Positions 1-36,329 of a stretch of DNA of 36,329 nucleotides are shown in pieces; position 1 is the stretch's first letter; each line of letters opens with the position of its first letter. The stretch is from a virus (taxonomy: Duplodnaviria > Heunggongvirae > Uroviricota > Caudoviricetes), in IMG/VR virus record IMGVR_UViG_2737471834_000007; one strand, written 5' to 3'. The notes beneath the pieces are model-generated. The model did no database searches. It was given only the letters and a program-made list of their open reading frames with translations, and was not told where the DNA came from. A program made the position numbers and the translations under genes.

Positions 1-174
1 ATGGGGTTATTGAACAGGAATGATGTCGAAGTTGAATTACACCTTTGTACCAGAGACGATGAGCCTAAAACCGCAAAGCTCAAATTAAGAAACATCAAAG
101 ATGTTGATGCGTGTGAGCGCCTGATTGATAAACTGGCTGCTGTGGTAATAACGTCAAAGAAAAATGAAGAATAA
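1..174 (+). CDS. Small ORF (57 codons) beginning at the first base of the window; hypothetical, may be a complete small protein or the 3' end of a gene to the left
   Basis: Open frame from ATG at 1 to TAA at 172-174; followed by a weak hairpin near 207-238 and a strong one at 291-312. No recognisable motif. Confidence 0.3.
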   Translation: MGLLNRNDVEVELHLCTRDDEPKTAKLKLRNIKDVDACERLIDKLAAVVITSKKNEE

Positions 175-290
175 TTGATAAGCCAACCACCATCTCTTGA
201 AATAAAAAGCCCACGATTAATCTTGTGGACTTTTTGCATTCAGGCTTGCGAGATAGGGTGCCTTATCGACCTTAACCCTGGCAACCGATT

Positions 291-321
291 GACGGGGGAT
301 TGCTCCCCCGTCGCGGTTTTC
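291..321. terminator. Stem-loop GACGGGGGA-TTGC-TCCCCCGTC followed by a T-run on the + strand; also lies directly 3' of the hok-like ORF on the - strand
   Basis: Perfect 9-bp inverted repeat at 291-299/304-312, then GCGGTTTTCTT. Confidence 0.45.
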
Positions 322-462
322 TTACTGTTTACATTGTAAGAACGCCGCAAACTCCGCACCCCAGAAGCTCATCCGTATTTCACACAGCGAACCGTGCAAC
401 ATCCAGATGATAAGGATGACCGTCGCGCAGAACGTGATGGCCGTAAGCGATTTTTGCGACAT
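322..462 (-). CDS. Hok/Gef-family type I toxin (46 aa small membrane peptide), missing from the ORF track because it is under 60 aa
   Basis: Translation MSQKSLTAITFCATVILIIWMLHGSLCEIRMSFWGAEFAAFLQCKQ: hydrophobic N-terminus, SLCEI motif and E-x-AAFL-x-CK tail resemble E. coli HokA as recalled from memory. AAGGAG lies 8 nt upstream of the ATG at 462; stop TAA at 322-324. Confidence 0.6.
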   Translation of the reverse strand: MSQKSLTAITFCATVILIIWMLHGSLCEIRMSFWGAEFAAFLQCKQ

Positions 463-482
463 AGCGCTTGCTCCTTTTTCAT
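369..482 (-). CDS. mok-like overlapping reading frame (37 codons) starting 20 nt upstream of the hok-like start
   Basis: ATG at 482 in a different frame from the hok-like ORF, ending inside it, as in hok/mok loci; no SD (preceded by CCTCC). Speculative. Confidence 0.25.
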   Translation of the reverse strand: MKKEQALCRKNRLRPSRSARRSSLSSGCCTVRCVKYG

Positions 483-727
483 GGAGGCGCTAACCTGTCA
501 CTTGCTAGGTAGACGGGATAGGGCCTCGGTTAAACAAAAGTGTTTTCCGGGGCCTTTCCACATCCGGCCTTCTGGTTTACCCTCCGACCATCAGCCGAAA
601 GGCACCCGCGTGTAATGTACTGATTTCATATTGTATGTGCAATGCTCGTCACATTTTTTAAATACGTGTAAAACGTAATTGCGCAAGAAAATGTAGTTTT
701 TATTCTGCTGATTTCAGCGTAGAGAAT

Positions 728-1108
728 TTATGAGTTCTGAAATTCTTCTGCACGCCTTTCCAGTTCAGCCATGAAAGATGTTCTGGCTTTTTCGTGAGCA
801 TCGGGGGCCATGATGCTGATGATTTGTATATTGTTATAATCCATCCAGTGCCTGGTATAAACCAGATAGATATTTGAAGTTCTGTCTATCTGGGCCTTGC
901 TTTTCTTCCATGGTGGTTCCGATGGTAGTCTTATGTGTAATTTATATACAAACGAACCACATAGTCTTGCGTTATCTTCCCACTGTCCTTCATTGCCGAA
1001 TCTGTCAGGGAGAACGCCGGTATTTAACCAGTTCTCCAGAGCTTTTCCGTAAATTTTTGCAATATCCTGGTATTCAACATCTTTATGAATACTTACTTTG
1101 CTCGCCAT
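728..1108 (-). CDS. Hypothetical cytoplasmic protein (126 aa), second gene of a two-gene cargo operon
   Basis: Start ATG overlaps the upstream stop by 1 nt (TGATG). No signal peptide. A YKLHIRL...IYLVYTRHW...IQIISI stretch is faintly RelE/ParE-like but not convincing. Confidence 0.5.
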   Translation of the reverse strand: MASKVSIHKDVEYQDIAKIYGKALENWLNTGVLPDRFGNEGQWEDNARLCGSFVYKLHIRLPSEPPWKKSKAQIDRTSNIYLVYTRHWMDYNNIQIISIMAPDAHEKARTSFMAELERRAEEFQNS

Positions 1109-1734
1109 CAGGAAAACTCCGGAGCCGGGAGTCCCATATTTTTATGCTCGGCAATAATCATTGTTTTCACATTTTCGTCAGACAGCGTATTGCCCAGACT
1201 GGTAGTTTTTTCAGGTGCAGTGCTTCGCTCGATGGCGTTGATGGTATCACGAACGATAAATTCACCCTGCGCAATTGCCCGACCAAAACGAACCAGTTTA
1301 TTGCGATAGGCGATTCTTTGCTCAAGACTGTCCGGATACATTTTTGCCAGGTTATCCGGGGCCATTACAATCCTGACAGCCTCTTTAACACGGGTGTGCT
1401 GCCTGAGTGACTCTTCGCATATTTTCGTTATTTTTGCTATGTTGTCAGTAAACAGCGCTCCTTTGCCTCTGTTCTGACGCTCTTCAATGACGGCATTGAG
1501 TGCAGCGCGCATGTTGTTATTCAGCCCGTTAATATATTCAATAGCTTCTTCAAGAGGCAGAAACACCTGGCCGTCATGATGCTCAAATGTAAGCATTGAA
1601 ACTACTCTGGCGTGCGTCCCGGATTCAATAACTGTTGTTGGTAGTATCGTGCTTTTAGCTGGCACCGGAGCCAGTGATGCTGTCAGAGCTGCAGCAATGG
1701 CAGCAATGGCAGCAGACTTTGATTTTTGTTTCAT
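1108..1734 (-). CDS. Predicted secreted/periplasmic protein (208 aa from the ATG at 1734; the track ORF starts at GTG 1746), first gene of the cargo operon
   Basis: N-terminus MKQKSKSAAIAAIAAALTASLAPVPAKS looks like a Sec signal peptide; GGAG 7 nt upstream of the ATG at 1734. No catalytic motif recognised. Confidence 0.55.
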   Translation of the reverse strand: MKQKSKSAAIAAIAAALTASLAPVPAKSTILPTTVIESGTHARVVSMLTFEHHDGQVFLPLEEAIEYINGLNNNMRAALNAVIEERQNRGKGALFTDNIAKITKICEESLRQHTRVKEAVRIVMAPDNLAKMYPDSLEQRIAYRNKLVRFGRAIAQGEFIVRDTINAIERSTAPEKTTSLGNTLSDENVKTMIIAEHKNMGLPAPEFS

Positions 1735-2215
1735 AATGCACTCCACAGGTTGATGTGTTCAGCATATCGCAAATAGCAACTTGCATAAAGAAACGCCACA
1801 TCGGCATCGATCGTTTTACGCGTTTTTTTTCTTGTTGTGATCCTTTTTTCAGTTTTATTTTACCCGTTAATTTTGCGCAGGCCGCGCCGTGTCTGGCTTC
1901 TTTGTCTGATGGTTGTTTGATGCGATCCCTTCGTGATCGTTTTTCGTCTCACGTAAAGTATGAAAACTCTTTTAATATCATGCTGTTTTATTGCTCCAGC
2001 CATTTGTGCGATCGAAAAAATCTCTCTTAAAATTGCAAAAAATTTCAAAGTGTGAAATTTCAGAACTTCGCTTTTCCCCCAGTTACTGCGCTGGCTGGCG
2101 GTCATTTTTGCACGACAGAAAACTGAAAAAGCGTTTCAACACAAAACCCGCGGGTTGGAGGGGGTAGCGCGGTTTACGTGACGTGACACTTTACGTCATG
2201 TCTGGCTGGTTATGT

Positions 2216-2241
2216 GCAAAATTGCCGCCTCAGTGAGGCGC
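2216..2241 (-). terminator. Candidate intrinsic terminator ending the long late tail operon (short stem plus AAUUUU on the - strand)
   Basis: On the - strand: CGCCTCA-C-TGAGGCG stem followed by GCAATTTTG, about 85 nt after the spike gene stop. Confidence 0.35.
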
Positions 2242-2325
2242 TGTCGTAATGATTTGATGAAAGGAGTGGTAACGCATGGGCATGGCTCATGCGTTATGTA
2301 ACGCGTGTTTTACGTGGGATTTATG

Positions 2326-4065
2326 TCAGGCGATAAGGTCGCGGTATTTTTCCCGCAGGGAGGATGACTGTCTGGCATCACCGGTAAATTCACCACTGTT
2401 GGTGGGTGTGCCTGTGCCAGGATGTGCGTGTGTGGCAGTATGTGTTGCCAGTTGTTCAATGAGATCCAGAATATCAACGAACAACGTCATCAGGTTCAGG
2501 CTGTCGCCACCCTGTGAACCATTTCGGCCTATAAACAGGGTCGGCGCAGAGAGGGAAAGACCACCACTGGCGGTGGTGGTCTGTGTACCGCTGATGTTCT
2601 CTGTGATATTCCCGCTTACTGTGCTGTTAACATTACCGCCGATGGTTTCCTGCCTGTCAGCACTGATGCGGCGTATCTCTGCCTGTAATTCCGCAATAAG
2701 GCTGTTTGCTTTCATCCTGATATCACCGGTGGCCACAATACCGTAATCACCATCAGAACCATGGACGATCTGCCCTGCCATCAGTGAACTCGTCCCGAGT
2801 ACCGTGGTACTGTCTGTGGCCTGTACGGTTGTTGTGCGGGTTGTCGTCCGGCGGCTTTCCTGGTCGCTGGTTATGATTCGGTGTGCAGATTCTTCCCTGA
2901 TTTTCTGGTCCGTTTCCCGGTGCCATGTGCCGTCACGGGTAACCCTCTGAAATACTTCTGCACGCTGTTGCTGTAGCTGCTCGCCAGGCTGGATATCAGG
3001 AAGATTCAGTCCGGATGGGAGTATCTGCCTTATTACCGGTTTATCTGGCCGTCCTTCGATATGCGCGATTTCCACTATCGTTCCGGCTTCCGGATAAGAA
3101 AAACAACCGGCCTCATTTCCGGCCATGGGTACCGGAAGCGGCACAGCAGGATATACAGGCGTGTTGTTGCTATCGTTGCCGTTTTCGTCCAGTAACTGCA
3201 GGTCAACAGCATAACGTGGGCGAAAACTGTCTGCCACATCGCCAAGCGTCGTGGATTCTGTTGGCGAGATAACGCGGGCCAGTCTTGGGCGTAATGTTCC
3301 GTCAGCCAGCTCCGGAAACTGCGATTCTGTCTGACGGCGCAGAGGTGAGCTGGATACGACAGAACCATCCTGGCGAAACCTGTCCCATGTCAGTGTCATG
3401 GTTTCATTATGAATGGCCACACGCGTGATCCGTCCTGCAGGAAGGTTAACGCCGGGGCGCAGAGTCTCTATCAACATGATATCCATACTGTTGCCGGCGC
3501 TGTGCCCCAGTGCATATTCATCAGGAATTTCCGGGATGGTCAGCGATGCAAAGCGTGAGTCACTGGCGCTGCCAACGAATACAGAACCATCCGGCATGGG
3601 ATGCCAGACGTAATCCTGAATGCTGAATATCCTGCCAAGATGATCAAGCAGGCGGGTACCGCTTCCGCTGTGAGTGACGCAGGGTACTGGTGTGGATACA
3701 TAGGCAGATGACGCGGTAATAAACACGATACCGCTCTTTTTTCCGAGATCATCAAGAACATCACGCAGAGTCGGGTGCTGGATGACACACGGAAAGCTGA
3801 AATCCAGTACCGCGGCAGCTTCCCTGATGAACAGACGGCGGGCGCCGTTTTCTGCCGGTTGATCGCGCTCAACGTAACCTGAGAAATAACGCCAGGCCTG
3901 GCCATCACGCCCAAAATCAATCTGAATCATGGCACCGGCCAGCGTGCTGCGCTGATTCGGCAGGGTGACAAAACCTCTTCCTGATGCGTTCAGTGACAGG
4001 ACCAGACTGATGTCTGTTATTTCTGTCTGTTTACCGTTTACCATGCATCTCTGAATAATTTTCAT
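2326..4065 (-). CDS. Baseplate central spike protein (gpV/VgrG-like C-terminal half with a ~330 aa N-terminal extension)
   Basis: AGTIVEIAHIEGRPDKPVIRQILPSG resembles the gpV OB-fold motif; C-terminal ATHTATHAHPGTG (H-x-H) resembles the spike apex of P2 gpV as recalled from memory. Start overlaps the upstream stop. Confidence 0.5.
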   Translation of the reverse strand: MKIIQRCMVNGKQTEITDISLVLSLNASGRGFVTLPNQRSTLAGAMIQIDFGRDGQAWRYFSGYVERDQPAENGARRLFIREAAAVLDFSFPCVIQHPTLRDVLDDLGKKSGIVFITASSAYVSTPVPCVTHSGSGTRLLDHLGRIFSIQDYVWHPMPDGSVFVGSASDSRFASLTIPEIPDEYALGHSAGNSMDIMLIETLRPGVNLPAGRITRVAIHNETMTLTWDRFRQDGSVVSSSPLRRQTESQFPELADGTLRPRLARVISPTESTTLGDVADSFRPRYAVDLQLLDENGNDSNNTPVYPAVPLPVPMAGNEAGCFSYPEAGTIVEIAHIEGRPDKPVIRQILPSGLNLPDIQPGEQLQQQRAEVFQRVTRDGTWHRETDQKIREESAHRIITSDQESRRTTTRTTTVQATDSTTVLGTSSLMAGQIVHGSDGDYGIVATGDIRMKANSLIAELQAEIRRISADRQETIGGNVNSTVSGNITENISGTQTTTASGGLSLSAPTLFIGRNGSQGGDSLNLMTLFVDILDLIEQLATHTATHAHPGTGTPTNSGEFTGDARQSSSLREKYRDLIA

Positions 4066-4637
4066 TATTCACCATCCTTCACGCTGCCAACACCTGTTTT
4101 ATCCAGCCATCCTCCCAGCGTATTATTCACCGCTCCCCAGAATGCGTCCTGAGTATTGATTTGTTCGTTGTCAGACGTTGAACTGGTTCCTGTCTGTGTC
4201 TGCTGGTTAACCCTGGTTTTCTGTTCGCTGCTGCGGGCCTCTTTTTTCTCAGGTACGCTGAGTTTTTCCCTCAGGGTAAATGAGACCTGCCAGTTCATTT
4301 TCCCCTGTTGCTCCGTGACGTCGACACTGCCGGAGAAAACACCCTGTCGCATATTCACCGCTCTGGCAGTAGCGTTGGCAATCCTGTAGCATTTTTTATC
4401 TCCTCCATTGCCCGTGGCTTCGGCCAGTTGAAAAAGGCGGGTCAGTATTTTTTCATCGTTGAAATCAACAATGCCCGTAACCTTCATTTCTTTCGCTTTG
4501 CAGCCTTTCTGGGCGCTGCTGGTACTGGTTGACTGACCTGACATATCCTTATCCGGCAGGCGCAGACTGACGCTGACAGTGATATTGCGTAACAGGATCG
4601 CTTCTCCGTCCAGCGCCAGCACGATGATTTGTGTCAT
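4065..4637 (-). CDS. Hypothetical tail/baseplate-associated protein (190 aa)
   Basis: Translationally coupled to both neighbours (4-nt and 1-nt overlaps); Ser/Thr/Gln-rich C-terminal half; no motif recognised. Confidence 0.45.
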   Translation of the reverse strand: MTQIIVLALDGEAILLRNITVSVSLRLPDKDMSGQSTSTSSAQKGCKAKEMKVTGIVDFNDEKILTRLFQLAEATGNGGDKKCYRIANATARAVNMRQGVFSGSVDVTEQQGKMNWQVSFTLREKLSVPEKKEARSSEQKTRVNQQTQTGTSSTSDNEQINTQDAFWGAVNNTLGGWLDKTGVGSVKDGE

Positions 4638-5392
4638 TTCAGGGCACCTCTCAGCGCGGATAAATCCTCACCTGCAAAGAGCATAATAGTGGTCAGCACC
4701 CGGTCAGGGTGAGGAATGTTTTTTTTCATCATGATTGCGGCCTGCCTGGTATCACCGGAAAAACAGAAACTCCATACCGGGCATGCCCTGTTTTGCGAGT
4801 CCTGCTTTTCTCCGGTTAATCTGTCCATCAGGTTCTGGCGATCTTTTCTGAACTGTGCCAGCGCCTGATCCAGCCCGGAAAAGGACAGCGGAGGAGGGGA
4901 AACGGCTGTGCTGATCAGTTCAGTCTGTGCCAGACTCCTGGCTGTGCTGAGTGACAGGGTGGTGCTTTCCGGAAGTGTTGCCGCTACTTTTGCCGGGATC
5001 TGCATTTTGCTGACGGCCAGCGATAACTGGCTGGCGATCAGCCTGTTCATTCGCTTGATTTCCGGCAAAGGGAATACGTCGGCAAAACGTTTTGTCAGTG
5101 CAAGAAATTCTGAAGCTGAAGTGGCACTGAGCATCATTAGTACCATGTCGCAATCCCGGCTGCCCTCCAGTCTGTGCAGAATGGCATCAATGGCATTTTC
5201 CGGGCTGAGGTAAGCCCCTGAACGGGTGACGTTTCCCACACCTTCCGACCATGGATGGAGACAAAGTTGTGAGCAGTTGATATTCATTGCAGCAGGCTTA
5301 AGAAGACTGCTTTTCCATTCCGCTGGCTGCATATTCATACCATTTATTTCTGATGTGTTGTTGTTTTTTGATGTAATACACAAATTTAACAA
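4634..5392 (-). CDS. Hypothetical protein (up to 252 aa; true start uncertain, candidates at 5338, 5332 and 5287)
   Basis: Track ORF starts at TTG 5392; no candidate start has a clear SD. Stop overlaps the next gene start (ATGA). Confidence 0.4.
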   Translation of the reverse strand: MLNLCITSKNNNTSEINGMNMQPAEWKSSLLKPAAMNINCSQLCLHPWSEGVGNVTRSGAYLSPENAIDAILHRLEGSRDCDMVLMMLSATSASEFLALTKRFADVFPLPEIKRMNRLIASQLSLAVSKMQIPAKVAATLPESTTLSLSTARSLAQTELISTAVSPPPLSFSGLDQALAQFRKDRQNLMDRLTGEKQDSQNRACPVWSFCFSGDTRQAAIMMKKNIPHPDRVLTTIMLFAGEDLSALRGALK

Positions 5393-5494
5393 AGTGTATG
5401 CAAGGCTGTTTAATATGCCATTCTGTAGTTATATGATCCCGGACGACCATAAGGGATACTGCACTGCAGTGTCTTCTCCCTTGGAAAACCTTTT

Positions 5495-5526
5495 CTGCCA
5501 TACATTTGTATGGCAGGCTTTTTTTC
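5495..5526 (+). terminator. Strong hairpin plus T-run oriented for the + strand, in an AT-rich gap inside the - strand tail operon
   Basis: CTGCCATAC-ATTT-GTATGGCAG followed by GCTTTTTTT on the + strand. Confidence 0.4.
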
Positions 5527-5905
5527 AGCAACAGGTTCCCTGCTGCGTGTCGCTGTATTTCCCTTTCCCGAACAACCTTACTGCAAGATACATTAACCGT
5601 CTGCGCCAGCGGGGAACTCCCAGCACCGTCATCGCATCCAGAAATATCCTGTCCGCTTCCGCCTTCGTGCGCAGGGCATTGTCATACAGCCAGTCATGAA
5701 TAATCGCGGCTTTCGCATAACGACCATGCGGCGGGAGCAGTGCCCACAGAAGCCGGGGCACACTGGCAAGGTCCGTCACATATCCCTCCGGAACATAAAT
5801 CACATCATCCGGGTTATCCGTCAGCCAGAATTCAAACGGCTCAACCAGACGCCAGCGGTAATCATCCAGCATCTCCAGAATGGCCGGTGTGGTGAACTTA
5901 CTCAT
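5525..5905 (-). CDS. DUF1353-like phage protein (about 126 aa from the internal Met)
   Basis: GYVTDLASVPR and IHDWLYD motifs resemble the DUF1353 family; the start overlaps the end of the upstream chaperone gene. Confidence 0.5.
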   Translation of the reverse strand: MSKFTTPAILEMLDDYRWRLVEPFEFWLTDNPDDVIYVPEGYVTDLASVPRLLWALLPPHGRYAKAAIIHDWLYDNALRTKAEADRIFLDAMTVLGVPRWRRRLMYLAVRLFGKGKYSDTQQGTCC

Positions 5906-6508
5906 CATCCCCCTCCGGCCAGCCAACAGGATACGCACGAATATCCGGCAGTGCGGTCAACCCTGCCACTTCTTCTTTCATCCGGCGCTGGCGTTCATGG
6001 ATTTTAAACCCCTGCATCACCATCGCCGCATTCATCGCAGTATCCAGTTGTATCAGCTCTTCCGGCGTCAGAGTGACATCCTGATTATCCGCATCCGTCC
6101 AGAAAAAATGCTCAGGCAACAGCCCGTTTCCTGCCACCGCAACTACCGGTGTCAGTCTGGACTGTGAAGCCTTTCCGGCATCCCAGCGATGACCACTGAA
6201 TTCAAAAACAAAACTGCTGTTCTCCTGGCTGTCACGCCAGCGACTGATTTCACCGTATTTCTGATTTCTGGCCTTTTCCAGTATCTCCTCTGTCACCACA
6301 AACGGCGTGACCTCACCCCAGGCCCCTGATATCAGCCCTGACCAGAGCCTTAACCCGAATTCTGTCGGGTCTGAAGCTCTGGCAGTATAAGGTACATATA
6401 CCCGCTGACTGTCATCAGAACGGTCTGCCATGAACACCTCACAGGTAATGCTGCCGTCTTCATTAAAACGGGCATTGCGCACGTCCGCTTCTGAATTCCT
6501 GGTATCCA

Positions 6509-6509
<1 letters not shown>
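5898..6509 (-). CDS. Putative tail fibre assembly/chaperone protein for fibre 2 (203 aa)
   Basis: Immediately follows fibre gene 2 with a 1-nt TAATG overlap; position and size fit a fibre chaperone; ends in GWPEGDDE. Confidence 0.45.
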
Positions 6510-8077
<1,568 letters not shown>

Positions 8078-8096
8078 TTTTGATTATCTCCGGTTT

Positions 8097-8624
8097 TTAT
8101 TTTGTTTCCGGTACAGCAGGCCAGTTAATTGCCTCAAAGTTATCCTTATTATCAATGTCTGAAATATTCAGAGAATTAAGCTCACGGATATACATCATCC
8201 ACTGAGTGAGTTTAAGCCTGTCATCGTCACTGATTATTCCAAGACTGAGCTCTGTCTGCCAGTCACTGGTAATACTCCTGGCTTCTGACAGTAACCTGTT
8301 GCGTTGTGTTTCAGCCTGTTGCCGGTAATCAACAGGAACCGGTAATATCTCACCATCCCTGTAATACCAGCGAGCTTCAATACAGAACCCTTCAGGAAGT
8401 TCGTCAACCTCCACAATGGAGAAACCTGCCGGATAGAGTCGTGAAGCATCCTCCGCCATGGAGTAAATCACTCCGGTGTCCGGATGAATGCACAATTTAT
8501 ATTTCTTCGTGAATTTATTGACAGAATCATAAAAATCCTGACCATCTTCACTGCAGAAATACTGGATACCCTCACCATAAGGCATGTTTTCAGGGTAATA
8601 GCGTGAAACGTTTCGGAGTTCCAT
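8097..8624 (-). CDS. Tail fibre assembly protein for fibre 1 (about 175 aa from MELRNV)
   Basis: C-terminal LTQWMMYIRELNSLN...INWP resembles the conserved Tfa/gpG tail; AAGGGA SD 7 nt upstream of the ATG at 8624, which lies just past the fibre 1 stop. Confidence 0.65.
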   Translation of the reverse strand: MELRNVSRYYPENMPYGEGIQYFCSEDGQDFYDSVNKFTKKYKLCIHPDTGVIYSMAEDASRLYPAGFSIVEVDELPEGFCIEARWYYRDGEILPVPVDYRQQAETQRNRLLSEARSITSDWQTELSLGIISDDDRLKLTQWMMYIRELNSLNISDIDNKDNFEAINWPAVPETK

Positions 8625-8635
8625 AATGTTGTCCC

Positions 8636-10189
8636 TTAACCGGATATGGTGCGCCATGCACCATTAATATAAATCTGTTTTGCTTTGTAATAGACACCGC
8701 CAATATTATCTGCAGAATGTGAGCCAGTTTCCTGAACGTTAATACCAGAAAGCACACAACCTGCCGGTGCACGGAATGTCCAGGAAATTTCATTACCACC
8801 TGGATTGTGAAAGGTTTCGTTTGTGTACTGTTCGTTCTGTACATAGCGGGCATCAGCTGCAGCCTGCGTCATTCCCGCTGAAATGGTGATATCCTTCGTA
8901 CCATCAAATGCAACACCATTTATTTTTCGTGCGTTCTGTAATTTTGTGGCGCTGCCGGCATTACCGGTTGTGTTCTGGTTGCCCTGGGTATTCACACCCG
9001 GGAGACTGATATCTCCTGAACCATCAAAACTGACGCCGCCGATTTTCCTGCTGTTTTTTAATTTTGTAGCCGTACCTGAATTGCCTGATATATCGGTGAT
9101 TGTAATATCTTCCGACAGTTCCTTACCGTTGACTTTCCTTGTTGACGGAACGCGACGTTTTGCCTCATCCATAGCGTTCTTTACGGCTTTGGGAGTGGCG
9201 GCACGATCTTCCCTGTCACTGTCTGTATCACTGCAATATTGCGCAAATCCCTTTTCGTCCAGCGTGGCGTCAGGGTGATTGCGTGAGCGCACGTGGGCTG
9301 CCAGTGCATCGCTGTTTTCTTCATCAGGTGTCTGTGGACGGACATCCTCAACATGACCGGCAGATAATACTGCCAGTGGTGCAACATAATGTCTGAATCC
9401 GTTATTATCGGTGTACTCTTCAGTTACCGGGCGCGTATTCATATTCCCGGCGTCTGGTTGTCTGGCAGTAAATACAAATACCGTTTTCCAGCAGCCTGAT
9501 ACATGTCCATGCCAGCTGGCATCAATCAGAATGATGTCATTTTCAGAGGCGGTAAGTGTGAAGGGCTCCGTTAACTGAACACGCAGGCCACCGATATAAG
9601 CCACACCGGCACTGATGGTAGCTGTGCTGTTAATGGCATCGTAACTGACATGCAGGCTGTTACCCAGACATGCGGCATCACCATAGTAATCAAAGGCCAG
9701 CAGACGACGCGATTCATCCATTCCTGTCAGTCTGGCAGTAAAATCAATCTGCCAGACGTCAGCGGTGACGTTTACCTGCATGGCTTCGGCTGCCCCTTCG
9801 AATTCCATGGCGAATGTGCGAATCAGGTTATTGCCCTGAATGCCATTGGCGGTCCTGATTTTCTGCTGTAGTGGTGTATGGGCAATCATACACAGTACAT
9901 GGCTTTCTTCGTGATACAGCCCAATCCAGTTATATTCAAAATCACCTGCGGTGGTGTCCAGAATCACGGAAAATGCAACCGTATCAGGTTCAAGCATGCC
10001 GAACTGTGTTACCGGAACGCGGCAGACAATATATTTTTCATCCGGCAGTTCTTCATCCACCGATATCGGTGCACTGATATCCATATCCGGAATGCAGGCA
10101 AAGATAAAAGTGTCCGGTCTGGCCGGTTCGTTGCTGATAAGCTGGTTTGCACACCAGTGCTCATATTGTCGCGTAATTACCGTGCTCAT
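8636..10189 (-). CDS. Tail fibre protein 1 (517 aa)
   Basis: Collar motif SRNHPDATLDEKGFAQ...AATPKAVKNAMDEA matches the P2 gpH/lambda Stf-type conserved region as recalled from memory; two ~36-aa fibre repeats follow; N-terminus shared with fibre 2. Confidence 0.7.
   Translation of the reverse strand: MSTVITRQYEHWCANQLISNEPARPDTFIFACIPDMDISAPISVDEELPDEKYIVCRVPVTQFGMLEPDTVAFSVILDTTAGDFEYNWIGLYHEESHVLCMIAHTPLQQKIRTANGIQGNNLIRTFAMEFEGAAEAMQVNVTADVWQIDFTARLTGMDESRRLLAFDYYGDAACLGNSLHVSYDAINSTATISAGVAYIGGLRVQLTEPFTLTASENDIILIDASWHGHVSGCWKTVFVFTARQPDAGNMNTRPVTEEYTDNNGFRHYVAPLAVLSAGHVEDVRPQTPDEENSDALAAHVRSRNHPDATLDEKGFAQYCSDTDSDREDRAATPKAVKNAMDEAKRRVPSTRKVNGKELSEDITITDISGNSGTATKLKNSRKIGGVSFDGSGDISLPGVNTQGNQNTTGNAGSATKLQNARKINGVAFDGTKDITISAGMTQAAADARYVQNEQYTNETFHNPGGNEISWTFRAPAGCVLSGINVQETGSHSADNIGGVYYKAKQIYINGAWRTISG
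8879..9109 (-). repeat. Tandem ~36-aa tail fibre repeat (two copies) in fibre 1
   Basis: SGNSGTATKLKNSRKIGGVSFDGSGDISLP versus TGNAGSATKLQNARKINGVAFDGTKDITIS. Confidence 0.6.
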
Positions 10190-28786: not shown

Positions 28787-29196
28787 TCCCCGGCAGTTGC
28801 CCGTTGAAACGCGGCACGGTACAGCACAAGAAGGCGCCGGTATTCGTCAATAAAGCCTTCTGCCGTTTTAATTCCTTTCACTGCCACGCTGTGGGTTGTC
28901 ATGTCCAGTACGAGCGCCATTTCTGACGATGACCAGCTGATAACGCTGCTGTCGAGTCCGTTGATGTGGAACAGGCCCAGATTCAGGCTGTGATTCAGGT
29001 CTCTGACGTCAACACGGTAACGGTCATCAACGGTGAAGGAGAAATCACCGGATGTGGCGGCGCTGCTGGCTGCCTGTTTACAGGCGAGGCGGTAATAGTC
29101 GTGCAGATCATTGAGACGGGAAGCGAGGCGTGGATCCACCGCCCACATCCAGTTAAAAAAATCCTGAATATCTGAAAGTCCCTTAACGTTCTTCAT
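28783..29196 (-). CDS. Hypothetical early protein (137 aa)
   Basis: CGGAGG SD; ATGA overlap with the replication gene start. Confidence 0.5.
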   Translation of the reverse strand: MKNVKGLSDIQDFFNWMWAVDPRLASRLNDLHDYYRLACKQAASSAATSGDFSFTVDDRYRVDVRDLNHSLNLGLFHINGLDSSVISWSSSEMALVLDMTTHSVAVKGIKTAEGFIDEYRRLLVLYRAAFQRATAGE

Positions 29197-29264
29197 GTGA
29201 ACCTCCGGTAACAGACGTGCGGAAGCCTCCCGCGCACGGGTGCGGGATGGCTTCAGGATATTGA

Positions 29265-29492
29265 TTAGTGGTGGTATTGCTGGCTGATGAGGTCCTGCAG
29301 CTCCGCGAGATCATCCGCCAGGTAGCTGAAGACTGCCGCGTAATACCCGGCAGCGATACCGCCGTTAAGCCGATGTAATACGTTTGACTGCATGATGAAG
29401 GCGACAGATGCAGCCCGATGGAGTCTGCGGTTGATTTCGGTGCGGATGTGAAGGCGCTCAGCGCGGGCGCGCTGTTGTTTGCGGTTTGCCAT
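29265..29492 (-). CDS. Hypothetical small basic protein (75 aa)
   Basis: GAAGAGG SD upstream of the ATG; Arg-rich N-terminus. Confidence 0.45.
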   Translation of the reverse strand: MANRKQQRARAERLHIRTEINRRLHRAASVAFIMQSNVLHRLNGGIAAGYYAAVFSYLADDLAELQDLISQQYHH

Positions 29493-29780
29493 GGTATGGC
29501 CTCTTCGTTTGTAAGTTTGGGAAACTCACCATCCAGAGGTTCCAAGCTCGGGGTGGCGAGACGTACGGGGTTGGAACTACCGGAAAACGAAGAAACCGGC
29601 CCGACCAGAGTCGGCCCCGTACGCCCCGCCATAATTTGGGTGCGAAAACGGCGTGGCGATACGGTACGCACAAAAAAACCGCTGGCGCGGCTGTGCGCTT
29701 CGTTTGTCGGCGGGGTTCCAATCCCGGCACCCGTTTTATGAGGTGCAGCGGGAATGTAACCCGACAGATTGCGGCATGGC

Positions 29781-29840
29781 AAGCGGTTTTTTTGTGTGTG
29801 CATGATGATCACTCAGTCCGGTAACAGTTCACGGAGCACG
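29781..29840. repeat. Direct repeat copy A (~57-60 bp) at the 3' end of the methyltransferase gene
   Basis: About 85% identical to 30876-30932 by hand alignment (AAGCGGTTTTT..GTGTGTGCATG...ACTCAGTCCGGTA.CAGTTC). Confidence 0.6.
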
Positions 29841-30828
29841 GCGTCAGCTGTTGTTCTGTGGTGTAAGAGGTAAACATCGCGCTGTAAGTTGTATCTCCCG
29901 TCACCGTGCCGCAGTCCGGACAGTAGCCGCCGCCATGGCGACCACAGGCGGCGCACTGTCTCAGGGTGGCGATAACCTCCGGTGCTGGTTTTCGGGTTTT
30001 TGCGCCAACGCTTCGAGGTGCCTGGATGCGGTTCATCCGGTAGCCCTGATAAATGCGCCGGGTTTCCGGTGTGTCGGAGCCGGAAATGGTTATGCTGGTC
30101 ATTCCACCTGTTTCCTGTGAAAGACGGTCAAGCGCTGCTCTCAGGCGAACGTGTTCGTCCTTCGTGAAGGGGTTTTCGTAGGCGGTGAAATTGTCCCGGC
30201 CACTGAATGGCAGGTAAGGGGGATCGCAGTACACGCAAAGCGTACTACCTATGCTGAACAGGTGACTGGCAGTGTTCAGCGTTTTCTGAAAATCGCCATG
30301 AACAAGCAGTGTTCTGGTGCTGTTTGCCTTGTCTGCAAATGCGCGGATTTCCCGTTCAGGGAAGTAGGGAGCCCGGTAGCCACCGAATGGGACATTAAAA
30401 TCCCCTTTTTCATTCACCCGGTACAGGCCATTAAAGCAGTGCCTGTTGAGGTATAAAAACATGGCGGCCAGCCGTAATTCGCGACGGTCGCTTATTCCCG
30501 TGCTCAGGAATGCATGATTCTCTGCATTAAAGGTGTTACGGATAGCGAGATAGTCAGTCCTGTTGTTGTGCTCCAGGAACAGGCCTTTTGCTTCGTTGAT
30601 CAGACTGTCGGTGTTGTCCCGTGCTGCCCGACAGAAATTAATCAGCGCACCATTGGAATCACCCGGGATGTAGCGGCTGTAACTGGTGTTCATGAATACC
30701 GATGCGCCACCCACGAACGGCTCAACCAGGCAGTCAGCTTCTGGCAGGTGCGCCTTCAGTGTGTTCATGATGCGGCTTTTCCCGCCCACCCATTTCAGCG
30801 GTGTGCCGGATAACAGTTCTTTGCTCAT
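29809..30828 (-). CDS. Dam-family N6-adenine DNA methyltransferase (339 aa), orphan
   Basis: AdoMet-binding motif (EPFVGGASVF) N-terminal and catalytic DPPY C-terminal (alpha-class order); Cys-rich C-terminal tail; no restriction endonuclease partner seen. Confidence 0.8.
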   Translation of the reverse strand: MSKELLSGTPLKWVGGKSRIMNTLKAHLPEADCLVEPFVGGASVFMNTSYSRYIPGDSNGALINFCRAARDNTDSLINEAKGLFLEHNNRTDYLAIRNTFNAENHAFLSTGISDRRELRLAAMFLYLNRHCFNGLYRVNEKGDFNVPFGGYRAPYFPEREIRAFADKANSTRTLLVHGDFQKTLNTASHLFSIGSTLCVYCDPPYLPFSGRDNFTAYENPFTKDEHVRLRAALDRLSQETGGMTSITISGSDTPETRRIYQGYRMNRIQAPRSVGAKTRKPAPEVIATLRQCAACGRHGGGYCPDCGTVTGDTTYSAMFTSYTTEQQLTPCSVNCYRTE

Positions 30829-33890: not shown

Positions 33891-34250
33891 TCATGCGGCC
33901 CTCGCTTTTTTAGTTCTGCTTCGTTCGCTATGTGTTGGCTTAAATAAAAACAGACGGTTTTCCCAGTCGTGCCATTCTTGTGGAGCATTTTCGATCAAGC
34001 GATCACATGCTTCATCCCACGCTTTTCTGTTGATGTAGAGTTCAGCGTTTCCGCCTGGTTTGAGAGGGTCTGCCATATACACGGCTGGCAATTTCCCTGC
34101 TTTAGCCATGCTCACAATGGCGTTAACTGTTTTGCCGATATACATCGCAAACCCTTCTTTTGACAGGAGATGCGAGGGATTTTCTGAAAGTCGAATTTCT
34201 TCACGTTCACGTGCTTTGCGTCCTGTTTTTTGATACTCCCCCTCTGGCAT
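33891..34250 (-). CDS. Cox/Apl-like excisionase/transcriptional regulator (start uncertain: 34250, 34145 or GTG 34355)
   Basis: YIGKTVNAIVSMAKAGKLPAVYMADP resembles P2 Cox (LIGKSTGAVRRMIDKGKLPVIDMTDP) as recalled from memory; divergent from the C repressor gene. Confidence 0.55.
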   Translation of the reverse strand: MPEGEYQKTGRKAREREEIRLSENPSHLLSKEGFAMYIGKTVNAIVSMAKAGKLPAVYMADPLKPGGNAELYINRKAWDEACDRLIENAPQEWHDWENRLFLFKPTHSERSRTKKARAA

Positions 34251-34430
34251 TTCTGACAGGTGATCGCATCGTGTTCCGCAAAGTGACTCAGGCGCGTTTT
34301 GAGTGCTTTCTTGCATCTGATATCCTCCGCCATTGGTGCTCTTTCTAATTGGCACTAGTTGGAACCACTTAGAACATTTGTTTGCTGTTAATATGTGGTG
34401 TTAATCTACACATATGTAGGAGTTTGTCAA
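34251..34430. promoter_or_regulatory. Lysis-lysogeny switch region between the cox-like and C genes, with candidate operator repeats
   Basis: Inverted repeat ATATGTG-N11-CACATAT (34391-34415) and repeated GTTAAT elements just upstream of the C start. Confidence 0.45.
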
Positions 34431-34724
34431 ATGGACATTCCGCAAAAAATTCGCGTCATGCGCAAATCTGAAGATCTCACTCAGCGGGAATTCGCTGATA
34501 TGATTGGAATTTCTTATTCTGCTCTGACCAGTTATGAGTATGGTCGTAACCTTCCTGGCCTTGAGATCACTATCAAGCTTTTCAAGCACCCGAGATTTTC
34601 TAAATACCGCGACTGGTTTTTGTTCGATGAGGTCGAACCAAAGGCCGGGCAGGTGGTACCGGCTCTCGCACACATTGGGCAAAGCGAAGCGGAATCGTCC
34701 CGCTCCGGCAAGAAGACTGGCTAA
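34431..34724 (+). CDS. C: Immunity repressor, P2 C-like (97 aa from the ATG at 34431)
   Basis: C-terminal PALAHIGQSEAESSRSGKKTG matches P2 C (PALAHFGQ...SGQKTG) as recalled from memory; HTH segment near the N-terminus; AGGAG SD. Confidence 0.7.
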   Translation: MDIPQKIRVMRKSEDLTQREFADMIGISYSALTSYEYGRNLPGLEITIKLFKHPRFSKYRDWFLFDEVEPKAGQVVPALAHIGQSEAESSRSGKKTG

Positions 34725-34790: not shown

Positions 34791-35801
34791 ATGTCGATTA
34801 AGAAGCTCGCTGATGGCAAATACTGTGTGGACGTGCGGCCTGCTGGATCTGAAGGAAGAAGATTTCGGCGGCGATTTCCTACCCGTGGTGAAGCGGCGAT
34901 GTATGAACGCCATGTTCTGACGCATTATCACGATAAGGACTGGGTAGAAAAACCCATTGAACGTAAAGCGTTAAGCGATCTTCTGGAACTGTGGTGGGTG
35001 TACCACGGTAAGAATCATCGTTATGGCGCGATGAATCGGGTCAGAATTGAAGCGGTTCTTCGTGATATGCGAGAGCTTGGTATTAACAGAAGTGACCATT
35101 TAACCCGAAAAAATATTATCAGATATCGCCTTGAATTAATGAATCGTGGAATTAAGCAGTCAACGGTAAATCGTTATTGCGCAATGATGAGCGGTTTCTT
35201 TGAAAAGCTGATTGATGTTGAAGAGTTTGTGGGTGATAACCCATTTCACGAGATACGCAAGCTAACAATTAATCAGCCTGAAATGGCTTATCTTGCACAT
35301 GATGATATTCCCAGGCTAACCGCGCTTTTATCTGGCGATAATCTTAAGGCTGTATTGTTAAGCCTGGCCACTGGCGGTCGTTGGGGTGAAGTTGCCAATA
35401 TTAAAGGTGAACACATAATTGGTGGGAAGGTTATTTTCATGGAGACAAAGAATGGATCTAGGCGGGTTATTCCTATAGCTAAAGATCTTGAATCTCTGAT
35501 TAAAGTAAAGGCGACGGGAAGATTAATAAAACCCAGTTATGCAACTGTCAGGAGTGCGATAAGGAGTGTTCGACCTGATTTGCCAGTCGGTCAGTCTGTG
35601 CATGTTTTACGACACACATTTGCAACTCATTTTATGATTAATGGGGGGAATATTATTACCCTGCAGCGTATTTTAGGACATAGCACAATCCAGCAAACAA
35701 TGACCTATGCGCACTTTGCACCTGATTATCTCCAGGATGCGGTAAGGTTCAATCCTGTCGCGGAGTTGTCCAGATATTGTCCACAAATAGGGACTAAATA
35801 G
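34791..35801 (+). CDS. int: Tyrosine integrase, P2 Int-like (336 aa from the ATG at 34791; track ORF starts at GTG 34755)
   Basis: MSIKKLADGKYCVDVRP matches the P2 Int N-terminus (MAIKKLDDGRYEVDIRP) as recalled from memory; catalytic HVLRHTFATHFMINGG and LGHSTIQQTMTYAHFAPDYLQDA motifs. Confidence 0.85.
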   Translation: MSIKKLADGKYCVDVRPAGSEGRRFRRRFPTRGEAAMYERHVLTHYHDKDWVEKPIERKALSDLLELWWVYHGKNHRYGAMNRVRIEAVLRDMRELGINRSDHLTRKNIIRYRLELMNRGIKQSTVNRYCAMMSGFFEKLIDVEEFVGDNPFHEIRKLTINQPEMAYLAHDDIPRLTALLSGDNLKAVLLSLATGGRWGEVANIKGEHIIGGKVIFMETKNGSRRVIPIAKDLESLIKVKATGRLIKPSYATVRSAIRSVRPDLPVGQSVHVLRHTFATHFMINGGNIITLQRILGHSTIQQTMTYAHFAPDYLQDAVRFNPVAELSRYCPQIGTK

Positions 35802-35877
35802 GTCTACTTAGAATGATGTTGATTAGTTTAACTTATTGATATGTCAAGGGGATGCCGGTATTTCCGGCCCCCTTCAT

Positions 35878-35901
35878 GCCACCTTCGGGTGGCGTTGTTT
35901 T
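35878..35901 (+). terminator. Intrinsic terminator downstream of int
   Basis: GCCACC-TTCG-GGTGGC followed by GTTGTTTTAT. Confidence 0.5.
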
Positions 35902-36046
35902 ATGCGATGTATCTCGCGATTTTTTTTTGTAACTTTTCCATCTTTTGCTTTTCTCTCCGAGCCGCTTTCCATATCTGCAATCGCATAAAAAACTCTGCTG
36001 GCGTTCACAAATGTGCAGGGGTAAAACGTTTCCTGTAGCACCGTGA

Positions 36047-36063
36047 GTTATACTTTGTATAAC
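36047..36063. promoter_or_regulatory. Palindromic operator in the chpS promoter
   Basis: Perfect palindrome GTTATAC-TTT-GTATAAC overlapping a TATACT -10-like hexamer, upstream of AAGGAGG and the chpS ATG. Confidence 0.55.
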
Positions 36064-36077
36064 TTAAGGAGGTGCAG

Positions 36078-36329
36078 ATGCGTATTACCATAAAAAGATG
36101 GGGGAACAGTGCAGGTATGGTCATTCCCAATATCGTAATGAAAGAACTTAACTTACAGCCGGGGCAGAGCGTGGAAGCGCAGGTGAGCAACAACCAACTG
36201 ATTCTGACACCCATCTCCAGGCGCTACTCGCTTGATGAACTGCTGGCACAGTGTGACATGAACGCCGCGGAACTTAGCGAGCAGGATGTCTGGGGTAAAT
36301 CCACCCCTGCGGGTGACGAAATATGGTAA
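36078..36329 (+). CDS. chpS: ChpS (ChpBI) antitoxin of the chpSB toxin-antitoxin pair (host gene); the chpB start codon overlaps its stop at 36324
   Basis: MRITIKRWGNSAGMVIPNIVMKELNLQPGQ...GDEIW is the MazE-type AbrB-fold antitoxin ChpS; AAGGAGG SD; terminal ATGGTAA gives the overlapping chpB start. Confidence 0.85.
   Translation: MRITIKRWGNSAGMVIPNIVMKELNLQPGQSVEAQVSNNQLILTPISRRYSLDELLAQCDMNAAELSEQDVWGKSTPAGDEIW

Follow-up and report, generated by a model that had tools for sequence, protein, structure and literature searches.

The stretch of DNA analyzed here (36,329 nucleotides, IMG/VR record IMGVR_UViG_2737471834_000007; hereafter the window) ends with a phage integrase gene, a short gap and the gene chpS, and it raises the question of where the phage stops and the host begins, and whether everything to the left of the gap belongs to the same prophage. 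We found that the gap, 35802-36077, is very probably the site of attR, the right junction of a complete prophage of the P2-like kind (Peduoviridae), about 36.2 kb in length, which lies between the E. coli genes ytfP and chpS and carries a heterobivalent tyrosine integrase of the P2 type.

The stop codon of the integrase open reading frame was located at 35799-35801 and the ATG of chpS at 36078, leaving exactly 276 nt between the two genes. The region 35700-36329 was compared with 5,426 complete E. coli genomes, 5,247 of which matched, and the match included the integrase end in only 13 genomes. In more than 5,200 genomes the ytfP–chpS interval was empty and the window was matched only from 35875 or 35878 on (query base 176 or 179). 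Since the matches of all the empty-site genomes listed began at one of these two positions, the boundary is not a chance feature. In strain ETEC4091 the empty site consists of the ytfP stop codon, TAATAAAAGCAC, GCCACCTTCGGGTGGCGTTGTTTTATGCG and then chpS, and BLAST aligned it to window 35875-36329 with 99.8% identity. The host ytfP-chpS intergenic DNA (the B' side, 35894..36077, + strand), which was 99.8–100% identical to empty-site genomes, contains the T tract that belongs to the ytfP terminator, another terminator-like hairpin (35903-35918) and an operator-like palindrome before chpS (36046-36064). The palindrome has the perfect arms AGTTATAC (36046-36053) and GTATAACT (36057-36064) and is nested in a longer imperfect inverted repeat (36033-36053/36057-36077). 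The antitoxin gene chpS itself (36078..36329, + strand) maps onto the annotated chpS of ETEC4091, and its stop codon is the end of the window. The insertion has left chpSB and its promoter region untouched.

These results agree with the first-pass annotation of the DNA, which had been made from the letters of the window. It had placed the end of the integrase gene 276 nt before chpS, had described the chpS promoter palindrome as intact and had confined the att core to 35802 to about 36040; the distance and the palindrome were both recovered as described, and the core was found at 35878-35893, 76 nt past the integrase stop codon. It had also proposed an alignment to an E. coli genome free of the insertion, naming as the finding that would count against it an integrase region lying away from the insertion boundary. 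The alignment to such genomes set the right junction at 35875/35878 onward, with the integrase region adjoining it.

The left junction is not definable from the window alone, because the window holds no second copy of the core GCCACCTTCGGGTGGC, even with up to three mismatches allowed, and no ytfP sequence; the earlier remark that no matching direct repeat could be seen at the left end by eye was therefore correct. The exact 57-aa product of window 1-174 was used as a look-up, and two public contigs were returned. The Logan contig SRR2239595_160 (L004) was 100% identical to window 1-2900; it is a separate assembly, whose source genome may differ, and it overlaps the window by about 5.5 kb, of which 2.9 kb was compared. 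To the left of window base 1 this contig contains tamA, tamB, ytfP, TAATAAAAGCAC, GCCACCTTCGGGTGGC and ACGAAAAATGCTG, in this order. The attL core (L004 5652-5667) directly follows ytfP and falls 334-349 bp before window base 1. As the attL core lies outside the window, all of window 1-35877 is inside one att-bounded element, and the length from attL to attR is 36,227 bp, compared with 35,814 bp for Escherichia phage P88. For annotation, both ends of the prophage are thereby fixed (attR core at 35878-35893, attL core 334-349 bp before the window).

The att core GCCACCTTCGGGTGGC (attR copy, 35878..35893) is 16 bp long and forms the stem-loop of the ytfP intrinsic terminator; the terminator-like call spans 35876-35895 together with the T tract. 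The 16 bp were common to attR in the window, attL in L004 (the contig that matches the left end of the window at 100%) and attB of the empty site. When attR (window and prophage H1), attL (L004, L005 and H1) and attB were aligned, this block was the only one shared by all; leftward of it attL tracked attB, and rightward of it attR tracked attB. The same block was the only one common to the attL/attR/attB alignments of eight independent prophages. The insertion has the P88-type att specificity, with integration between ytfP and chpS at the hairpin CACCTTCGGGTGGC and with int beside chpS. The attB site is a perfect 20-bp palindrome except for a loop of 4 nt, so that the direction of insertion can depend on the loop only; all occupied genomes inspected had the same orientation, int adjoining chpS and the P' arm adjoining ytfP. 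No tRNA gene was found in the window, and a tRNA target was rejected on this ground. The exact 24-nt E. coli attB string also occurred in records labeled Streptococcus sanguinis (a contig of 524 bp), Comamonas, Pseudoduganella and an Aquabacterium MAG, probably as contamination or as chance terminator look-alikes.

The integrase gene (34791..35801, + strand) is transcribed toward the att site and encodes a P2-type tyrosine integrase of 336 aa with the likely start at the ATG at 34791. The product contains the Pfam domains Int_N and Phage_integrase (E = 3e-15 for the latter), the catalytic residues R197, K220, H271, R274, H297 and Y306 were readable in the alignments, and the identity to the Int of phage P88 was 81% over 331 aa. 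The closest solved structures were 5c6k/5dor (labeled 'Integrase' by the tool; E = 6e-75 for 5c6k), which we take to be the P2 integrase, and 1aih, the HP1 integrase (E = 1e-39). According to PMC3448106, the arm-binding domain is discriminated by the residues Y, D and R in the P2 type and W, E and Y in the 186 type; the N-terminus of the present Int, MSIKKLADGKYCVDVRP, has Y11, D14 and R16, spaced 3+2 like the published discriminators if the positions are mapped as we infer. Upstream of int, and first in a C-int lysogenic operon, lies a C-type immunity repressor gene (34431..34724, + strand; Pfam HTH_3, E = 2.7e-9). An alternative TTG start is present at 34425 and the mechanical ORF starts at 34395; in contigs with an identical Int, gene calls of 97 and 99 aa were found at this position. 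Divergent from C is a Cox-family gene (33891..34355, - strand; Pfam Phage_Cox, E = 6e-28), and its product is predicted to be the excision directionality factor and the switch repressor.

The attP of the phage (567 bp) was reconstructed from window 35660-35893 and L004 5668-6000, and it was scanned for arm-type Int sites, the P2-type consensus of which is given as tgTGGaCa in PMC3448106. On the P arm, two putative sites were found as direct repeats 11 bp apart over the last int codons (35767..35785, - strand): read on the minus strand, repeat 1 is TCTGGACA (35767-35774, one mismatch) and repeat 2 is TGTGGACA (35778-35785, no mismatch). Among the related P arms read (H1, P88, L020 and L026, the last two described below), repeat 1 was invariant and repeat 2 differed by one or two bases. 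The P' arm has a perfect TGTGGACA repeat 64 bp after the core start and, 11 bp further, a weak second repeat, TTGCCATA, which matches the arm consensus poorly; the P'-arm repeats were kept in seven attL sequences. All arm repeats have the same orientation, and three hits to tgTGGaCa with at most one mismatch were obtained in the 567 bp against 0.39 expected. Arm repeats thus stand on both sides of the core, as belongs to the P2 type. Between the P-arm sites and the core, a putative IHF consensus site, TATCAATAAGTTA (35829..35841, - strand), was the only exact match to WATCAANNNNTTR in the 567-bp attP; its consensus positions were retained in P88 and H1, and its N positions varied. A GC-rich phage hairpin without a T tract of its own follows past int (35846..35874, + strand), and the RNA fold of 35840-35925 had a free energy of -36.6 kcal/mol (z = -3.8).

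In the circular phage, attP would then be ordered as the int 3' end with two TGTGGACA-type sites, the IHF site, the hairpin, the core, an A-rich spacer and two arm-type repeats, and across the core it is predicted to read CCCCCTTCAT-GCCACCTTCGGGTGGC-ACGAAAAATG. By analogy with P2, Int would bridge the arms and the core, IHF would bend the P arm, and the strands would be exchanged with attB inside the central CCTTCGGG; on the same analogy, Cox (33891-34355) would direct excision.

The site is rarely occupied. An attL-type junction was detected in 29 complete E. coli genomes at a coverage of at least 80% and in about 6 more at 75–78%, a related attR was detected in 13-26 genomes, and about 0.5–0.6% of complete E. 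coli genomes have the site occupied. An index of the public collection lists the identical Int protein in 56 blocks, and those with the 24 longest contigs were read; chpS, chpB and ppa followed the identical Int in 6 of the 8 places shown, with two exceptions. In the first, a strain without chpSB (L026; GCA_030711025.1, 3250-3760), the same prophage type was inserted at the same hairpin with ppa directly next to it, so the insertion is independent of chpSB.

The other exception is a second locus. In Logan contig SRR32855147_32 (L020, 3960-4320) an identical Int of 336 aa with its P arm abuts the cellulose gene bcsC, the DNA reading catGTCGCCTTCGGGCGGCGcaccg, with the junction between catGTCGCCTTCGGG and CGGCGcaccg. 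Intact bcsC reads AATGTCACCTTCCGGCGGCGCACCG and contains the look-alike hairpin ATGTCACCTTCCGGCGGCG (L035, 150-175), and the crossover fell within the same central bases as at ytfP. The bcsC site is probably a secondary attachment site, the use of which would disrupt the gene, although the matching bcsC attL was not recovered. The Int of this prophage lineage may have two natural targets, the ytfP site and the look-alike hairpin in bcsC, a reading that we put forward tentatively. If Int did make this junction, the lineage is also able to enter bcsC and inactivate it.

This second locus also bears on the activity of the prophage. The element could be a decayed remnant that is no longer able to excise, the junction being a fossil att site. 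The excised attP junction gave zero hits in IMG/VR viral contigs, and the attP and attL junctions gave zero hits in GTDB representative genomes, as a remnant would lead one to expect for the attP form of the present variant; moreover, the tail module is unlike that of P88 and the combination of modules was unseen in complete E. coli genomes. Against decay, however, the integrase is complete and has its six catalytic residues, both arm sites and the core are intact, as are C, Cox and every structural and replication gene checked, the presence of an identical Int in 56 blocks suggests recent spread, and the occurrence of the same Int and P arm at bcsC implies recent activity. We therefore consider a remnant unlikely and a complete prophage the better reading.

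Genes for the capsid, packaging, the tail, replication and the switch are present as a full set. PHROG matches were obtained for the portal, the large and small terminase, the scaffold, the major head protein, the head-tail adaptor, the sheath, the tape measure, the baseplate and the origin nicking protein; the candidate for the tail tube was phrog_1182, which is named only 'tail protein'. The element thus has the P2-like capsid and packaging module (equivalents of Q, P, O, N, M and L), a gpA-type replication nickase and contractile tail genes that mark Peduoviridae, in a tail gene order unlike that of P2 or P88. The last structural operon (2326..5392, - strand) was assigned by family searches to a baseplate protein (2326-4065; phrog_2258, E = 5e-213), an HP1_ORF34 baseplate protein (4065-4637; Pfam HP1_ORF34, E = 2e-57) and a 252-aa protein of phage families of unknown function (4634-5392; phrog_1677).

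Two successive tail-fiber genes lie on the minus strand within 5525-10189 (8636-10189 and 6509-8077), each followed by fiber-assembly or chaperone genes, and the stretch 5364-7247 was 94–96% identical to fiber genes annotated 'prophage tail fiber N-terminal domain' in other E. coli genomes. Judged from these matches, the tail-fiber stretch may be a recently swapped host-range module. Two Rfam matches above the gathering score were found on the minus strand, the C4 antisense RNA (29549-29636, 83 bits) and isrK (29672-29746, 68 bits); both are inside a mechanical ORF (29183-29812) beside a DNA methyltransferase gene (29809-30828).

At the left end, window 1..174 (+ strand) holds the last 57 codons of a phage ORF matching positions 72-128 of the 128 positions of the phrog_14142 profile. 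In L004 the ORF runs from 5758 to 6174, about 128-138 codons, and starts between attL and window base 1, just past the terminator-like hairpin of the P' arm. It is followed by a toxin gene of the hok/gef family (322..462, - strand; locus extent about 250-620), which was called HOK_GEF in L004, where the call was marked weak, and which has E. coli matches annotated Hok/Gef. A YafO-family toxin gene (728-1108, - strand; Pfam YafO_toxin, E = 1e-27) overlaps an ORF of 212 aa upstream of it (1108-1746, - strand), in which no Pfam or PHROG match and no recognized family was found. The pair, 728-1746, is an accessory (moron) locus inside the prophage. The 212-aa ORF greatly exceeds the typical YafN antitoxin in size, and its product may be an atypical partner of YafO. 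In 1860-2326, which separates the accessory genes from the last baseplate gene and is where P88-like prophages have ogr, no ogr/delta-like late activator was recognized, and the 81-aa ORF at 1860-2105 had no family match.

The first-pass annotation had left it undecided whether a cargo operon, the hok locus and the first small ORF are inside the prophage or in flanking island DNA. Given the attL core to the left of base 1 in L004, the first of these holds and the second does not. If the operon meant is 2326-5392, it is likewise inside the prophage, but it is not cargo: that reading was rejected on the family searches, which gave baseplate proteins (phrog_2258 and HP1_ORF34). In a stronger form, the left part (the small ORF, hok, the YafO pair and the leftward operon) would be a separate tandem island or satellite with its own boundary inside the window. 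Its typical accessory genes (hok and the YafO toxin) would suit an island, and the whole left end had only partial or diverged matches in the 5,426 complete E. coli genomes, with no close full-length match for the left 2.5 kb. Such an island is nevertheless very improbable, as the window contains no second core or core-like sequence at three mismatches, no tRNA gene and, among the ORFs examined, no second integrase, and the core directly after ytfP is only 334 bp left of base 1. The P' arm adjoining that core is the same as in P88 and about 35 other prophages at the ytfP-chpS site, hok occupies the identical position beside attL in P88-like prophages, the operon 2326-5392 is baseplate, and the total length suits a single P2-like genome. 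With one att-bounded prophage as the preferred reading, the phage carries hok, the YafO pair and the leftward baseplate operon along with it.

Polymorphisms within the core were used to locate the strand exchange. At the int-side junction, a phage-specific T stood at core position 2 (P88, H1, L026 and L020) and a phage-specific G at position 4 (L026 and L020); the attL counterparts retained the host bases at both positions. On the other side, position 13 was host-type in attR, and position 17 had a phage-specific A in attL. At position 10, a non-host C (GCCACCTTCCGGTGGC, loop TTCC) was found in the attL of one related prophage (L030; NZ_CP148318.1, Z1323MEC0001), the attR of which had the normal TTCG. 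This C either segregated from a heteroduplex in the overlap region or arose afterward as a point mutation. At the bcsC junction, position 10 of attR was the phage-type G and position 13 was the C of the host. The overlap regions of tyrosine recombinases are expected to contain positions that can end on either side. The occurrence of the non-host base at position 10 on either side places the exchange within core positions 5-12, CCTTCGGG (35882-35889), to which it is probably confined as far as these few polymorphisms allow; the region consists of the 4-nt loop and two base pairs on each side. If the bcsC junction was truly made by Int, the polymorphisms would map the strand exchange to the loop of a palindromic terminator, in which only the 4-nt loop sets the orientation. 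That the recombination core is instead a neighboring sequence, such as the T tract or the CA left of the hairpin, with the identity of the hairpin incidental, is hardly conceivable, for although the CA at 35875-35876 is common to attP and attB and carries the BLAST host match to 35875, position 35877 is T in the phage and C in the host, attL and attR differ right of 35893 in most prophages (A or G at position 17, with no similarity beyond), the int side retains phage-specific bases at core positions 2 and 4, and the published P88 attP is the hairpin itself.

With the hairpin as the core, the insertion would affect the transcripts on its two sides differently. At attR, terminator-like sites are present at 35876-35895 and 35903-35918, both before the unchanged chpS control region, and the host T tract after the phage and core hairpins would stop transcription from C-int before it reaches the chpS promoter, which is unaltered. 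At attL, ACGAAAAA takes the place of GTTGTTTT behind the ytfP hairpin, for which no terminator is then called on that strand; ytfP would retain the hairpin and lose the T tract. The phage brings in a terminator-like hairpin of its own 77 nt downstream (L004 5744-5765).

Compared with known systems, the attachment machinery is like that of phage P2 in its heterobivalent tyrosine integrase, in the tgTGGaCa-type arm repeats on both sides of the core with a putative IHF site on the int-side arm, in the Cox gene divergent from C and in the intergenic, non-tRNA insertion site. The P2 core has 27 bp; the present core is a short perfect hairpin, unlike that of P2. The sites listed for P2 (2,165,238), WPhi (4,104,392) and PhiD145 (950,293) in MG1655 are elsewhere, ytfP-chpS lying near 4.45 Mb, and those of phage 186 are the tRNA-Ile genes ileY (2,783,812) and ileX (3,213,703). 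Haemophilus phage HP1 has a related integrase catalytic domain (1aih, E = 1e-39), and the terminal baseplate gene here matches Pfam HP1_ORF34; HP1, however, integrates into a tRNA-Leu gene according to PMC3448106, whereas no tRNA gene is involved here.

The closest likeness is to phage P88 (Xuanwuvirus P88, Peduoviridae), for which the terminator hairpin of ytfP, upstream of chpS, likewise serves as attB. This phage was recovered after induction with mitomycin C, and its attP was published as the 14-bp GCCACCCGAAGGTG (PMC5285337), corresponding in reverse complement to positions 3-16 of the present core. In the literature, neither ytfP nor chpS was found named as a phage attachment site, the site being only implicit in this 14-bp attP (PMC5285337). 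The P88 record is circular and cut at the core, and across its ends it reads cttcatGTCACCTTCGGGTGGC joined to ACGAAAACTGC (also cttcatGTCACCTTCGGGTGGC joined to ACGAAAACTGCTGTAATGC). P88 shares the order C, int, P arm, core and P' arm, its arm repeats are conserved, the first P-arm repeat exactly, the IHF consensus positions are kept, and hok is likewise beside attL. The two nevertheless differ in several respects. The int-att DNA of P88 is only about 79% identical to that here, and the C found here at core position 2 is a T in P88. Between attL and hok, P88-type prophages have DUF4177 and a yidD-like gene where the present element has phrog_14142, and no ogr-like gene was recognized at the left end, unlike in P88-like prophages. 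P88 has the classical P2 tail order, whereas here the sheath, tube and tape measure precede the baseplate, and the HP1_ORF34-type baseplate operon comes last. Int/IHF/Cox systems of the P2 type that use a short intergenic core are well known, and the core of P88 has been published; the junction is an ordinary prophage junction, as the first-pass annotation had read it. The element is assigned to the P88-type integration specificity, and it is a new mosaic P2-like phage that uses the P88-type site.
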